A stretch of 60,313 nt of DNA from a virus (taxonomy: Duplodnaviria > Caudoviricetes), in the IMG/VR virus record IMGVR_UViG_3300006116_000003, positions 1 through 60,313 of that record, one strand, 5' to 3'. The position numbers and the translations under genes were made by a program. Positions 1-4,498 of the stretch are shown here, one piece after another. Position 1 is the first letter of the stretch. Every line of letters begins with the position of its first letter. The notes beneath the pieces were generated by a model that was not told where the DNA came from, did no database searches, and was given only the letters and a program-made list of their open reading frames with translations.

Positions 1-120
1 TGACAGCCTGCGGCAGGCTGGCTCGAGGACGCAGCTCCCCCAGCCACCGCGCCGACGCGCCCGTCAGCCGCAGGCTGTCAGGCTCGACGGCGCGGCTGCC
101 TCGTCAAGTATTGACGAGCG
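1..120. repeat. Terminal direct repeat, left copy
   Basis: Identical to 60194-60313; probably an assembly circularisation overlap. Confidence 0.95.
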
Positions 121-200
121 TGCACTAAGTATCGCTCAAGTAATACTCTGCGCGCTGACAGTAAAAAAATTTTCCTTGACAAGTTGCTGCGTTAACTTTT

Positions 201-209
201 TGTGGATAA
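201..209 (-). promoter_or_regulatory. Single perfect DnaA box in AT-rich context
   Basis: TGTGGATAA = reverse complement of TTATCCACA, flanked by A/T tracts. Confidence 0.35.
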
Positions 210-442
210 CTAAATAAAAAAAACTTGCATTGGGGGGTGGCACCCCCCTTGACAACAGGAAACAAAAGGCACCGTAGGGGCCGGTGCCACAAACCCACAT
301 ACCCCCTAAAAACTGGAGCAAAACGGGGGTGGGGTATATTTTTCCTAGGAAAAACATGCCTATCCGCCGAAGGGGGTATACCCCCAATTGACTGTGAGGG
401 CGGGGTGGGGGTATGTCGGCGGCGGACGGCGCCTTTGCGTCT

Positions 443-518
443 AGGGGGCGGGGATTCTCATGGTCCATCTCCGGGTGGGCTGGATGCGTATCGTAACAGG
501 CGCACTGCCCTGCCCCCT
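443..518 (+). ncRNA. Candidate structured RNA (3-way junction)
   Basis: 11-bp P1 (443-453/508-518), P2 with c(UCCG)g loop (463-480), P3 (485-489/500-504); G-U pairs work on + strand only. Confidence 0.4.
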
Positions 519-613
519 TTACACCCACGCACAGGCCGGCTACAGGAATGGCCATGAACACGACAGCGCCTCGACCGACGACCTGAGGGCGTAGCCACTG
601 GCTACGCTCGGAT

Positions 614-689
614 CTGGGTGTAGCTCAAGTGGTAGAGCGCCTGCCTTGGGAGCAGGAGGTTGTAGGTTCAAGTCCTGTCACCCAGACCA
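614..689 (+). tRNA. tRNA-Pro(UGG)
   Basis: Acceptor CTGGGTG/CACCCAG, anticodon arm CCTGC-CTTGGGA-GCAGG, TTCAAGT T-loop, encoded CCA; 76 nt. Confidence 0.95.
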
Positions 690-757
690 GTTTGAAATCG
701 AAGTAGAAGAGAAGATAGACCGTGGGTGCGCGTGGGAGTACAGCGCACATCTGGCCC

Positions 758-821
758 GGAACCCGAAACGGCTGACGATTGCCTGAGATGGCATGAAACG
801 CGAAAGCGTCCCGTGGAGTCC
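758..821 (+). ncRNA. Hammerhead ribozyme, type I; predicted cleavage after C810 (GUC)
   Basis: Stem I ACGG/CCGU, core CUGACGA (772-778), stem II UGCC-UGAGAU-GGCA, GAAA (795-798), stem III ACGC-GAAA-GCGU, GUC triplet; U-U at position 10.1-11.1 is non-canonical. Confidence 0.75.
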
Positions 822-919
822 TCCGATCCGGGGAATAACTGAGGACCTGAGGCCCACATACCCACGATCTATCTTCTTTTATGGAAGCTATCACCCAGAC
901 CAACATATCGAGGGTAGTT

Positions 920-1141
920 ATGGGCGACGATGTCGAAGCGATGAAGTCCAACCGCAAGCTGCAGTCGGCCATGAAGAAGCGCCGGCTTGAGGCTGAGCAC
1001 AATGAGCGGATGGAGAAGCTGTACGCTTATTACGCCGGCACCGAGGTTCCCCTCAGTCGCGTGGCGCAGCGCCTCGGCGTGGGCGAGATGGTTGCGATGA
1101 AGAAGCTGTCAGACTATGGGCGTCGTGTTTCGCCGGATTAG
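920..1141 (+). CDS. Small putative HTH DNA-binding protein
   Basis: GAGGG RBS before ATG920 (ORF open from 881); VPLSRVAQRLGV HTH-like segment. Confidence 0.55.
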   Translation: MGDDVEAMKSNRKLQSAMKKRRLEAEHNERMEKLYAYYAGTEVPLSRVAQRLGVGEMVAMKKLSDYGRRVSPD

Positions 1142-1171
1142 CTTATTTTCTTGTAGCAGAGCATCTCACTT
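1132..1171 (+). pseudogene. 5' remnant of a disrupted tRNA (probably Thr)
   Basis: GCCGGAT-TA-GCTT...AGAGC-A-TCTCA-CT; the acceptor strand pairs perfectly with 1688-1694. Confidence 0.75.
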
Positions 1172-1183
1172 TAAGGTAGTGTT

Positions 1184-1202
1184 CTTCCTCTCGGCGAGGA
1201 AG
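1184..1202 (+). promoter_or_regulatory. Hairpin occluding the HNH Shine-Dalgarno
   Basis: CTTCCTC-TCGGC-GAGGAAG ending 4 nt before ATG1207. Confidence 0.6.
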
Positions 1203-1206
1203 TATT

Positions 1207-1599
1207 ATGCCCACGCACAAAACGTACCCATGCCTAAACTGCGGAGTCACAGTTACTCGGGTGAACACGATGGGCAAGTATTGTTCGAACAAGTGCCAGC
1301 ATGCGCACACCAGAGCGCAGAAAGTCACTTGCGGAACAGCAAGCCATGCCTCCGTCAGGCGGTACCTTTTGGACACTCGCGGGAGGCAATGTCAAGAGTG
1401 CGGCATTGAAGGATGGAACGGCAAGGCGCTGACATTCGAGCTTGAGCACATTGACGGGAACGGGGACAATAACAACCTTATCAACCTATTGATACTATGC
1501 CCGAACTGCCACTCGCAGACGGATACGTACAAAATCCGCAATAGGGGTAACGGCCGTCACCAGAGAAGGGTGCGGTACGCCGAGAAAAAGAGTTTTTAG
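1207..1599 (+). CDS. HNH endonuclease (free-standing, homing type)
   Basis: CxxC motifs, ELEHIDGNGDNNNLINL..LCPNCH; lower GC than the genome. Confidence 0.9.
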   Translation: MPTHKTYPCLNCGVTVTRVNTMGKYCSNKCQHAHTRAQKVTCGTASHASVRRYLLDTRGRQCQECGIEGWNGKALTFELEHIDGNGDNNNLINLLILCPNCHSQTDTYKIRNRGNGRHQRRVRYAEKKSF

Positions 1600-1675
1600 G
1601 CTTCAGAAGCATTGCTGGCGATGCGCCGGATTTGTAACCCGGAGACAGGGGGTTCGATTCCCTCCTGAAGCACCA
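1600..1675 (+). tRNA. tRNA-Thr(UGU), atypical
   Basis: Acceptor GCTTCAG/CTGAAGC, anticodon TGT at 1633-1635, TTCGATT, CCA; A8/U14 swap and A31-C39 mismatch. Confidence 0.85.
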
Positions 1676-1676
1676 C

Positions 1677-1698
1677 TCGATCCCCACATCCGGCACCA
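1677..1698 (+). pseudogene. 3' remnant of the disrupted tRNA
   Basis: TCGATC-CCCAC-ATCCGGC-A-CCA: T-loop, T-stem strand, acceptor strand and CCA. Confidence 0.8.
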
Positions 1699-1770
1699 TT
1701 CTCTTCTGTCACTTCCCAAGAGGCGGCTGATCCATTACATATTGGGCCGTTACGCGAAGAGACGAGAGCT

Positions 1771-2376
1771 ATGCCCAAAAAACCACCAGCCGAGCCGAGA
1801 CTCTCGAAGAGCCCGTTGGCGCGCATGCGCCCTGACGGCGGGGTTATTCCGCTCCCTACGCCTGCGCACGAATACGACGACGTGACGGCCGCGATGGTCG
1901 AGCGCCTGCGCGCTGGTGGCCTGCGCAAGGATCAGGTGGCCAAGCTGGTCGGGGTGAGCCTGCCCACGGTCGAGAAGTATTACGGCGAAGAGATGCAGGC
2001 CGGCACGTCGTCCCTGATGACGAAAATCGCCTCGAACATGGCCGTCATCGCGCAGGATCCGGGGCACAAGCAGTCTGTCGTGGCCGGCAAGTTCATGCTG
2101 AGCCGGCTGATGCCCGAGGTGTTCAGCGAGAAGCAGCAGATCCAGTTTCTGGGCAAGGACGGTCGGCCGATTGACCCTCAGCAGACGACCACGCTCGACC
2201 CTTACCAGTTGACCGACGAGCAGCGTTACGCGCTGCGCGAGGCGGTGTCCGGCGTGCTGCGCGAGGCCATCGACGAGGCCAGCGGCTATCGGCAGTCTCA
2301 GGTTCCGGAGGCTGACTACACGATGATTTCGGACGGGACCGACGAGGCGGAAGTCGAAGAGATCGACGACGAATGA
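1771..2376 (+). CDS. terS: Terminase small subunit
   Basis: HTH (QVAKLVGVSLPTVEKYY); overlaps terL start. Confidence 0.7.
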   Translation: MPKKPPAEPRLSKSPLARMRPDGGVIPLPTPAHEYDDVTAAMVERLRAGGLRKDQVAKLVGVSLPTVEKYYGEEMQAGTSSLMTKIASNMAVIAQDPGHKQSVVAGKFMLSRLMPEVFSEKQQIQFLGKDGRPIDPQQTTTLDPYQLTDEQRYALREAVSGVLREAIDEASGYRQSQVPEADYTMISDGTDEAEVEEIDDE

Positions 2377-4097
2377 GCCGGTTGATCGACATTGGGGGTG
2401 GGGTTCTGATCGACCCGAGCGAGCAGCTTCGGCTTCTCGAGCGGTACGATTACGAGAACAGCCTCTATGACTTTCTGGTCGGCGCGTGGCAGCACATTGA
2501 CGCCTCGCCGTGGAAGGACGGCTGGCCGATTGAGGCTGTGGCCGAGCACCTGCAGGCCGTGGTCGATGGCGACATCAAGCGGCTGGTGATCAACATCCCT
2601 CCGCGTATGGGCAAGTCATCGATCACGTCTGTGGCCTTCCCGGCTTGGACGTGGGCGCAGACGGAACGGTCGGCCACCTCGGGGCCTCAAGTCCAGTTCC
2701 TCTGCGCCTCATACGGTTCGTCTCTGGCGATGCGCGACTCCGTGAAGTGCCGCCGACTGATCGAGAGCCCGTGGTACCAGCGGTATTGGGGCGACCGCTT
2801 CAAGCTGACGTCCGACCAGAACACCAAGGGGCGCTTCCTGAACGATCAGCGCGGCGAGCGCCTGATCACCTCGGTCGATGCGAAGATCACCGGCGAGGGC
2901 GGCTCGATCATCATTGTGGACGACCCGAACGCGGCGAATGAGGCCTTCTCGGAGGCCAACATCCAGTCCACGATTGACTGGTGGGACGGGACGATGAGCA
3001 CCCGCCTCAACGACCAGAAGACCGGCGCGATGATCGTGATCCAGCAGAGGCTGGCCGAGAACGACTTGACCGGCCACATCCTCGACAACGACACCGAGGG
3101 CGAGTGGACCCACCTTGTGCTGCCGATGCGGTACGAGTGGGAGCGCCACTGCTCGACGGTCATCGGTTGGGAAGACCCCCGCGGCTGCGACGACGACGGA
3201 GAGCCGCTGGTCAAGATCGGTGAGACAGGGGTCCGTGAGCCTGTCTCGCACAAGGCCGAGGTGGCTCTGAAGGAGCGGCAGGGCGAACTGCTGTGGGATG
3301 AGCGGTTCGGCGAGAAGGAAGTGGCCCGTCTGGAGCGCGTGCTGGGGCCGTATGGCGCCGCCGGCCAGTTGCAGCAGCGCCCCGACCCGCCGGGCGGCGG
3401 CGTGATCAAGCAGGAGTGGTGGAACCTGTGGGAGCACAAGGCCTATCCGGGGATGGATTTCATCTTGGCATCCCTCGATACCGCCTACACCACCGTCAAT
3501 TCCAATGACTTCTCGGCCTTGACCGTCTGGGGTGTGTTCACCGAAGACTTCAAGGCGCAGGAGATCCGGTCCTTTATGAAGGGATCGGGGGCCAGACAGG
3601 TCGAGCGCACCTACGTTGAGGGCTCGCCGAAGCTGATGCTGATGCACGCGTGGCAGGAGCGGCTCGAGTTTCACCAACTGATCGAGAAGGTGGCCGACAC
3701 CTGCCGGCGTTTGCGTGTAGATAAGCTGCTGATTGAAAATAAGGCCGCGGGTATTTCTGTGTCGCAGGAAATGCGGCGACTGTATAGCAGCGCAAGCTGG
3801 GCTGTTCAGTTGTCCGATCCGAAGAGTATGGACAAGCTATCGCGCCTCATTTCTATTCAGCATCTTTTTGCAGAGGGTTTGATCTTTGCGCCTGACTATT
3901 CGTGGGCGCAGGAAGTCATCAATCAGGTCGCGATGTTCCCGAAGGGGAAGCACGACGACTTGGTCGATACTGTGAGCATGTCGATCCGACACTTGCGCGA
4001 TCTGGGGCTTCTGACCCGCACCGCGGAACGAATGGAGGAACTTGAGTCGCTGAAGGTGTACCCCGGCAAGGGGCCGGTGCCGCTATATCCGGCGTGA
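2373..4097 (+). CDS. terL: Terminase large subunit
   Basis: IPPRMGKS Walker A, IIIVDD Walker B, SLDTA and HDDLVD nuclease motifs. Confidence 0.95.
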   Translation: MSRLIDIGGGVLIDPSEQLRLLERYDYENSLYDFLVGAWQHIDASPWKDGWPIEAVAEHLQAVVDGDIKRLVINIPPRMGKSSITSVAFPAWTWAQTERSATSGPQVQFLCASYGSSLAMRDSVKCRRLIESPWYQRYWGDRFKLTSDQNTKGRFLNDQRGERLITSVDAKITGEGGSIIIVDDPNAANEAFSEANIQSTIDWWDGTMSTRLNDQKTGAMIVIQQRLAENDLTGHILDNDTEGEWTHLVLPMRYEWERHCSTVIGWEDPRGCDDDGEPLVKIGETGVREPVSHKAEVALKERQGELLWDERFGEKEVARLERVLGPYGAAGQLQQRPDPPGGGVIKQEWWNLWEHKAYPGMDFILASLDTAYTTVNSNDFSALTVWGVFTEDFKAQEIRSFMKGSGARQVERTYVEGSPKLMLMHAWQERLEFHQLIEKVADTCRRLRVDKLLIENKAAGISVSQEMRRLYSSASWAVQLSDPKSMDKLSRLISIQHLFAEGLIFAPDYSWAQEVINQVAMFPKGKHDDLVDTVSMSIRHLRDLGLLTRTAERMEELESLKVYPGKGPVPLYPA

Positions 4098-4498
4098 TGG
4101 AGGGCGTTATGAACGAGTATGAGAGTGGGATCTTTGCCTTCGAGAAGGTGGTTTCCGGCGTTTTGGGGAAGACGAATGCGTCCCTTGAGGAGGCGGGCGT
4201 CGAATTTCGGATTGAGCGGTCCGACCAGATGGATGCGCGCCTTGCGGCCGACCGCGAGGCTGTCCGCGAGGCGGTTGGCGGGGCAATTTTCACCGCACGA
4301 CTGAACGCGCAGCGCACCGAAGACCTGCGCCGGCGGTTGCTCGAAGAAATCGGCCGCGTTGACCATATTGCGGGGCTCGTCACCGAACAAAGTGCAAGAA
4401 TGAGTCGCCTCTGGACCGAATTTGCTGCTATACCGGTCGCATTTCTTGAGATGGTCGGCGAAAAAGAAGAGGAAAAGGGCGTTGATGGACCCGAATAA
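4094..4498 (+). CDS. Hypothetical protein
   Basis: Coupled to terL stop. Confidence 0.6.
   Translation: MMEGVMNEYESGIFAFEKVVSGVLGKTNASLEEAGVEFRIERSDQMDARLAADREAVREAVGGAIFTARLNAQRTEDLRRRLLEEIGRVDHIAGLVTEQSARMSRLWTEFAAIPVAFLEMVGEKEEEKGVDGPE

Follow-up and report, generated by a model that had tools for sequence, protein, structure and literature searches.

The viral record IMGVR_UViG_3300006116_000003 (Duplodnaviria; Caudoviricetes), analyzed here over its complete length of 60,313 bp and hereafter called the window, carries a transfer RNA (tRNA) gene, tRNA-Thr(UGU), that is broken and survives only as its two ends. Between these ends lie a gene for an HNH endonuclease and a complete second tRNA-Thr(UGU) gene. 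Based on comparative sequence analysis, we consider it probable that tRNA-Thr genes are invaded at the anticodon by a free-standing HNH homing endonuclease, which supplies a substitute tRNA along with its own gene. The window has 120-bp direct terminal repeats at its ends. Sequencing runs containing this stretch numbered 24, all of them DNA runs labelled freshwater metagenome, and no RNA run was listed. Viral or metagenome contigs and loci compared with the window are designated by L-numbers (L002, L091 etc.). The elements of the broken locus are as follows:

1132–1143, plus strand: 5' relic of the resident tRNA-Thr(UGU), with acceptor strand, positions 8–9 and start of the D-stem; 12/12 identical to the L002 tRNA
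1144–1171, plus strand: tRNA-like continuation with an oversized D-loop, AGAGC-A, 5 nt and CTT, ending at the would-be U34
1144–1676, plus strand: inserted cassette, as judged by base composition; left edge uncertain between 1144 and 1172
1184–1202, plus strand: hairpin CTTCCTC/GAGGAAG holding the Shine-Dalgarno sequence of the HNH gene
1207–1599, plus strand: HNH endonuclease gene, 130 aa (ATG at 1207, TAG at 1597–1599)
1600–1675, plus strand: complete spare tRNA-Thr(UGU) with encoded CCA (ARAGORN and Rfam)
1677–1698, plus strand: 3' relic of the resident tRNA-Thr(UGU), from T-loop to acceptor strand, A73 and CCA; 22/22 identical to the L002 tRNA

Two ends of a broken tRNA-Thr gene

An earlier note on this DNA, made from the letters alone, had proposed that the two outer segments are halves of one tRNA whose acceptor strands form a perfect 7-bp helix. 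This was borne out: GCCGGAT (1132–1138) is the sole 7-mer of 1100–1206 with a reverse complement in 1676–1760, and this complement, ATCCGGC at 1688–1694, is followed by A-CCA. The proposed 3' end also proved correct, being identical at all 22 positions to the intact tRNA-Thr of L002. As a 22-mer it occurs in only two stretches of IMG/VR, namely the 3' end of the L002 gene and an unrelated tRNA-Leu (L003). The proposed 5' half (1132–1171) stood only in part. Positions 1132–1143 match L002 throughout, but 1144–1171 is only tRNA-like: AGAGCA alone matches the L002 tRNA, and 573 of 5000 shuffles score equally well, which is not significant. It may represent resident sequence that has decayed, or else a relic that came with the cassette. 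Since 1152–1180 resembles a TAGAGC...TAAATA element located upstream of sister HNH genes (TAGAGC followed by TAAATA within 30 nt, before the HNH start codon, in 14/79 loci), part of the supposed 5' half may come from the donor cassette.

The middle of the resident tRNA, which had been reported missing, is indeed gone from about position 35 to 54, taking with it the 3' strand of the anticodon stem, the variable loop and the 5' strand of the T-stem. The persistence of a perfect acceptor helix could suggest a working split tRNA, with the outer halves still joined or assembled into a functional molecule. We find this scarcely conceivable, as it is contradicted by a sequence with an absent middle, an aberrant D-loop and no intron core.

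The identity of the broken gene was approached through bacterial tRNA genes fetched with the acceptor stem and D-arm pattern of the relic. Out of 80 such genes, 77 had the anticodon UGU and 3 CGU, which argues that the broken gene was a tRNA-Thr, as the earlier note had suggested. The 80 genes were mostly from Alpha- and Betaproteobacteria and the best was identical to the L002 gene at 67/72 positions; the exact 72-nt L002 tRNA had no match among 185,579 species genomes. Judging from these matches, a canonical tRNA-Thr(UGU) gene of host-like type was broken, and the nested gene encodes the same isoacceptor.

An intact allele at the syntenic site of a relative

The surroundings of the broken gene comprise the following features:

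614–689, plus strand: complete tRNA-Pro(UGG)
about 708–880, plus strand: conserved structured RNA
881–1141, plus strand: small open reading frame (ORF), 86 aa; its last codons and TAG stop overlap the 5' tRNA relic
1771–2376, plus strand: small-terminase-like gene
2373–4097, plus strand: large terminase gene (PHROG 38, E 1.5e-80)

A relative with an intact GCCGGAT...ATCCGGC-A-CCA tRNA at this locus and no HNH gene, the check suggested in the earlier note, was found in L002. Its 75-nt tRNA-Thr(UGU) lies directly after the structured RNA and before the small terminase gene. The small terminases of L002 and the window are 37% identical, and the structured RNA is far better conserved between the two than the proteins are. 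Because an intact tRNA-Thr with identical ends is found in L002, the relics in the window are not a matter of chance. The HNH gene is thus present in the window and absent at the same locus of a related contig, as is typical of a free-standing homing endonuclease gene, although the comparison involves one distant relative.

Single-protein scans of viral contigs with the small terminase or the HNH protein gave no relatives, while alignment-based scans did. Small-terminase relatives were obtained at 6 viral and 8 metagenome loci, among which L007 and L097 are the L002 contig again. No second intact allele was found among these loci, tRNAs upstream of the gene being present only on the L002 contig. 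The small ORF at 881–1141 has one homologue, 84% identical and located downstream of the small terminase gene on L103; the different position indicates that this gene has moved. A closer pre-insertion allele was not found by way of this homologue, as L103 carries no tRNAs.

The insert is foreign in composition and contains no intron

The 533 bp between the relics have a GC content of 0.525 compared with 0.619 for the genome, placing them in the lowest 0.33% of 533-nt windows. Similarly, GC content at third codon positions is 0.68 in the HNH gene vs 0.83 and 0.82 in the terminase genes. The earlier note had argued that the arrangement is not a spliceable intron, and two observations agree with it: the middle of the tRNA is missing, and no intron, Intron_gpI included, was matched by Rfam in window 1–3000 at E up to 10. 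As a control, the same search detects Intron_gpI in L017, L024 and L027, while L018 scores 49.6 bits, just below the cut-off of 50. The broken locus therefore has neither the ribozyme core nor the two complete exons of a group I intron, and its HNH gene lies outside any intron or intein, as free-standing homing endonuclease genes do. Judged by its composition and these searches, the insert between the relics is foreign DNA and not an intron.

The HNH gene and its product

As originally described, the HNH ORF (1207–1599) is followed directly by a complete tRNA-Thr(UGU), which begins on the base after the TAG stop codon. The predicted protein has an N-terminal zinc ribbon, an HNH core and a conserved basic tail. 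PHROG HNH families match it (best PHROG 10822, E 1.4e-25), and the Pfam HNH family gives 17.1 bits, under its cut-off of 21.4. A search of 5.8 billion proteins returned 1127 relatives at E up to 1e-5, the best of them 59% identical. The window protein retains every Cys, His and Asn that is invariant across an alignment of 35 relatives. H81, N93, C98, N100, C101 and H102 are among the invariant residues, so that the putative catalytic His, the Asn, the metal-binding His and the CxxC zinc ligands expected of the HNH superfamily appear to be in place. An AlphaFold2 model was confident, with a predicted local distance difference test (pLDDT) score of 87. Compared with known structures for the beta-beta-alpha-metal fold of HNH enzymes, it gave as its best Foldseek rows in the PDB GVE2 HNH, McrA, Cap5, the Cas9 HNH domain and I-HmuI, all of them weak (E at least 0.1), and a PDB sequence search gave one match at E 0.068 and nothing useful.

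Hairpins holding the Shine-Dalgarno sequence are usual for phage homing endonuclease genes. The one in the window has a minimum free energy of -15.4 kcal/mol (z-score -2.0), and 7 of 200 shuffles fold equally well. Like hairpins precede the HNH start codon in L012, L013, L021, L038 and L074.

The spare tRNA-Thr(UGU) is complete and of phage type

Both ARAGORN and Rfam recover one complete tRNA-Thr(UGU) at 1600–1675 (Rfam 53.1 bits vs a gathering score of 29). Identity elements of tRNA-Thr are G1-C72, C2-G71 and A73 together with the anticodon UGU; the spare gene has all of them along with an encoded CCA, and its product would be expected to be a tRNA-Thr. Two features are unusual, A8 and the A-C mismatch of pair 31:39. 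The A8 and a GCAT/ATGC D-stem mark it as phage type, and its D-arm and anticodon arm are like those of the tRNA-Thr of T5-like phages and of loci L040 and L043. From the resident allele it differs throughout the D-arm and anticodon stem. The A8/GCAT type is found both beside HNH genes (12/47 adjacent tRNA-Thr) and among the others (4/20); as it is not exclusive to HNH neighbors, the two genes are not claimed to be strictly inherited together.

In the same freshwater samples (runs X10–X13), AT-rich contigs of other phages carry a tRNA-Thr that differs from the spare gene at 4–5 of 76 positions (e.g. G1628T and C1640A) within unrelated flanks. These AT-rich phages are possible donors of the spare tRNA.

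Members of the HNH family are associated with tRNA-Thr genes

By tblastn, the HNH family is present in 207 phage records. Counts given below refer to the best 80 of 544 IMG/VR loci obtained by an alignment-based scan, with ARAGORN run on all 80 and with adjacency defined as lying within 100 nt of the HNH match. Among adjacent tRNAs, 47/91 were Thr (37 of them UGU), compared with 23/296 among the remaining tRNAs of these loci (odds ratio 12.7, Fisher p 1.6e-18, a value that is generous since some of the 80 loci are near-copies). A tRNA-Thr was adjacent in 44 of the 80 loci, on both sides in 3 of them, and 46 of these 47 tRNAs were on the HNH strand. At 16 loci the tRNA-Thr starts no more than 10 nt from the end of the HNH match or overlaps it. 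The T5-like coliphage HdH2 is annotated with an HNH stop codon abutting a tRNA-Thr. Together with a nested example in L091 described below, these cases show that the unit of HNH gene and tRNA-Thr recurs in unrelated phages, the other check that the earlier note had called for.

We next placed the Thr label on an HNH tree built from 73 of 81 rows (8 were left out, their translated matches containing an internal stop or falling short of 90 aa). The label changes 6 times on the tree compared with a mean of 13.3 after shuffling, and none of 500 shuffles was as low. As kin share labels, this result shows clustering and not co-evolution. Members adjacent to tRNA-Val fall on one branch, together with three adjacent to tRNA-Gly and one adjacent to tRNA-Ala.

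The distribution of the family also bears on a role in packaging. Some cos phages need a terminase-associated HNH nuclease for DNA packaging, and the HNH gene of the window lies 170 nt upstream of the small terminase gene, next to a confirmed large terminase. However, the family occurs in tRNA clusters of many unrelated phages and not beside terminases in the loci examined, and L002, L006 and L008 have no HNH gene upstream of the small terminase gene on inspection of the sequence (other relatives were scanned for tRNAs only). Moreover, the genome has direct terminal repeats, and the genome-end HNH protein of Arthrobacter phage Karkharias falls in another PHROG and shows no significant similarity (E 0.04). 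We consider a packaging helper highly improbable, and rejected this identity for the HNH protein on the grounds of the missing Karkharias homology, the terminal repeats and the family's absence beside terminases.

Several other structured RNAs were seen at loci of the family. GOLLD RNA matches, each cut by the locus end, occur in L038 (2805–3199, 147.1 bits) and L066 (1658–2059, 153.7 bits), about 0.9 to 1.1 kb downstream of units of HNH gene and tRNA-Thr. On the viral contig L085, a full bacterial-type ribonuclease P (RNase P) RNA (2887–3246, 188 bits) shares a tRNA cluster with the HNH gene. Transfer-messenger RNAs are present in HNH-bearing tRNA clusters of the viral contigs L019 (779–1129) and L089 (1947–2347).

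Broken tRNAs and group I introns at sister loci

To survey broken tRNAs, we ran a tRNA-Thr profile over the loci and then inspected the sequences. L091 has the architecture of the window, with a 5' half, HNH gene, complete tRNA-Thr and 3' half in this order and with complementary acceptor halves. Clean canonical tRNA 5' halves lie directly upstream of the HNH gene in L021, L051 and L077, and 3' tRNA relics start at or immediately past the HNH stop codon in L040, L042, L032 and L049. The 5' relics of L021 and L091 break at U34/G35, as does that of the window if 1144–1171 is read as tRNA.

This position coincides with a site of intron insertion. Over all 80 loci, Rfam detected Intron_gpI in L090, far from the HNH gene, in addition to the four loci named above (L018 included, just under the cut-off). 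In L018, L024 and L027 the intron splits a tRNA-Thr(UGU) 5 to 240 nt from the HNH gene, and excising 204, 200 and 210 nt respectively restores a 76-nt tRNA-Thr(UGU). The boundaries fit group I rules (the exon ends in U and the intron in G) and put the intron between U34 and G35. At the intron-bearing loci the HNH gene is outside the intron. A free-standing HNH gene beside an intron that occupies its presumed target site is the pattern of collaborative homing. In L017 (1889–2156), a group I intron (61.9 bits) splits a tRNA taken as Asn(GUU) directly downstream of an HNH family member, which shows that introns of tRNA-Thr are not the only ones to accompany the family.

The three introns at 34/35 of tRNA-Thr(UGU) lend some plausibility to a decayed mobile intron. 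In that case, the anticodon loop would once have contained a group I intron bearing an HNH ORF, the ribozyme core and part of the 3' exon would have been lost later, and the spare tRNA would have come separately. We regard this origin as very unlikely. No intron signal was detected in the window even at the permissive threshold, only about 35 nt separate the break from the start codon, and the sister introns do not contain the HNH gene. In addition, the tight junction of stop codon and tRNA is common to many loci, which argues that HNH gene and tRNA move together.

Alternatively, the HNH gene could be a passenger without a role, on board a piece of another phage's tRNA cluster that was imported by ordinary illegitimate or tRNA-to-tRNA recombination. 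Recombination concentrates in tRNA gene clusters, relatives differ greatly in what precedes the small terminase gene, each of the two junctions lies within a conserved part of a tRNA, and the same-habitat phages described above carry a similar tRNA-Thr in unrelated flanks. Yet such an event would leave unexplained the position of the family at tRNA-Thr in more than half of the loci, the recurring tRNA halves against ORF ends and the apparent coincidence of the break with the intron insertion site. A passenger thus seems unlikely to us.

A model for invasion and replacement

In the invasion by a homing endonuclease that we favor, a foreign cassette of approximately 530 bp, consisting of the HNH gene and a phage-type tRNA-Thr(UGU), would have been copied into the phage's own proteobacteria-like tRNA-Thr(UGU) gene. 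Enzymes of the family would cut tRNA-Thr genes near the anticodon, around position 34/35, a site suggested by the group I introns that occupy it beside three sister HNH genes. Break repair from a cassette-bearing genome would then copy in the nuclease gene together with its tRNA, and crossovers in the conserved D-arm and T-loop would leave the recipient with its outer ends only. Since the spare tRNA differs across the D-arm and anticodon stem, it would both replace the lost function and escape the nuclease. Nuclease expression may be kept low by the Shine-Dalgarno hairpin and by RNase P cleavage of the abutting tRNA at the stop codon.

Both the cutting of the canonical tRNA-Thr gene by the HNH protein and the resistance of the spare copy, which the earlier note had also proposed, are inferences of this model. 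Several observations weigh against it. On the tree, the HNH proteins closest to that of the window are those of L022 and L057, and neither locus has a tRNA within 1.5 kb. In L038, L050, L061 and L068, a canonical tRNA-Thr with the anticodon arm of the presumed target stands beside a family member, implying that specificity differs among members or that self-cutting is tolerated. The 3' relic begins in the T-loop and not at position 35, so that 20 nt of the old gene would have been lost by a further event. The sole relative with an intact gene is distant, and the viral and metagenome scans with the small terminase gave ten other loci (two of them one contig fetched twice) without any tRNA there. 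Finally, a joint skipping the cassette was not found over 500–2600 in contigs of 4 freshwater runs, which carries little weight given that the contigs are short.

More tentatively, invasion with replacement could act as a natural cleave-and-rescue drive, a possibility that we put forward with clear reservations. Here the HNH enzyme would cut the canonical tRNA-Thr(UGU) of rival phages and possibly of the proteobacterial host, the spare gene serving as uncuttable rescue and perhaps as anti-defense cargo against anticodon nucleases directed at tRNA-Thr(UGU).

The structured RNA and the region upstream of the small terminase gene

A conserved structured RNA, about 170 nt in length and closed by a long stem, is located between tRNA genes in the window (708–880, plus strand), L002 (4270–4436) and L004 (about 1470–1620). 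Over 107 nt it shares 79% identity with the Arthrobacter phages Karkharias and Constance. Rfam gave no match at E up to 10, and a 27-mer taken from it matched only L002. RNAalifold on the three sequences predicted 50 pairs, of which 8 show changes in both partners. By analogy with the species I and II RNAs of T4, it could be a small RNA processed from the tRNA operon.

L008 is closely related to L002. Upstream of its small terminase gene it has neither the structured RNA nor either of the two tRNAs, but a short hairpin (about 2590–2660, corresponding to about 4190–4600 in L002). This site is a hot spot for cargo among these phages. Where the window has its complete tRNA-Pro(UGG), L002 has only a hairpin (about 4213–4262) with a stem like the tRNA-Pro acceptor, which may be a deletion relic or a minihelix.

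Relation to known systems and implications

Free-standing homing endonucleases in phage tRNA clusters are already known. Homing endonuclease genes survive in essential genes by means of self-splicing introns or inteins, or else settle between genes. In organelles, some bring a duplicate end of the gene that they interrupt. Synthetic cleave-and-rescue drives link a nuclease against a needed gene to an uncuttable copy of it. The locus described here differs from both of the latter, as the organelle genes replace the gene end only and the drives are engineered; moreover, the phage's own tRNA-Thr is probably not essential.

SegB of phages T4 and T6 is known to cleave phage tRNA genes internally and to drive the inheritance of these genes (PMC2330249). 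It resembles the present case in being an intronless nuclease gene among phage tRNA genes whose product cuts phages without it and which is inherited with the flanking tRNAs (PMC2330249). In contrast to the HNH family, SegB is a GIY-YIG enzyme that recognizes a T-loop motif common to many tRNAs, and its homologues are significantly co-located with tRNAs without isotype preference (PMC13096335). Its gene lies between tRNA genes and not inside a broken one, and same-isotype replacement is not described for SegB. The F-Tfl enzymes (2004, via citation in PMC2330249) are likewise site-specific endonucleases of a phage tRNA gene region. In collaborative (trans) homing, a free-standing endonuclease gene lies beside a gene whose ORF-less group I intron fills the target site (Zeng et al. 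2009; Bonocora and Shub 2009; PMC3984707). The window differs in having no intron and in drawing its presumed protection and function from a second, divergent gene copy, and the published cases concern protein-coding genes (PMC3984707). Literature searches, which did not extend to supplementary tables, brought up no publication in which an HNH gene and a spare tRNA of the same isotype lie within a broken tRNA gene, and none that describes group I introns in tRNA-Thr genes of phages.

To what is known, the window adds a clean syntenic intact allele, a quantitative link of an HNH family to tRNA-Thr and a coincidence with an intron insertion site. It suggests a third solution to the survival of a homing endonuclease gene, in which the target gene is broken and a different working copy is supplied. 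The family, which is linked to a single tRNA isotype and counts over 1100 relatives in databases, may offer natural nucleases with a predictable target, the tRNA-Thr anticodon region. It also provides a concrete route by which tRNA genes could move between unrelated phages.

Finally, tRNA-Thr(UGU) is a prime target of the PARIS nuclease AriB, and the tRNA-Thr of T5 helps to bypass this defense (PMC12409363). We speculate that the cassettes could spread an anti-defense trait against PARIS. If cleave-and-rescue holds true, a selfish element and a host-range trait would spread together among unrelated phages, for which tRNA genes would provide universal landing pads. The occurrence, beside one nuclease family, of tRNA-Thr genes that are protected by an intron, protected by divergence, or broken and replaced would make a good system for studying the origin of mobile introns.

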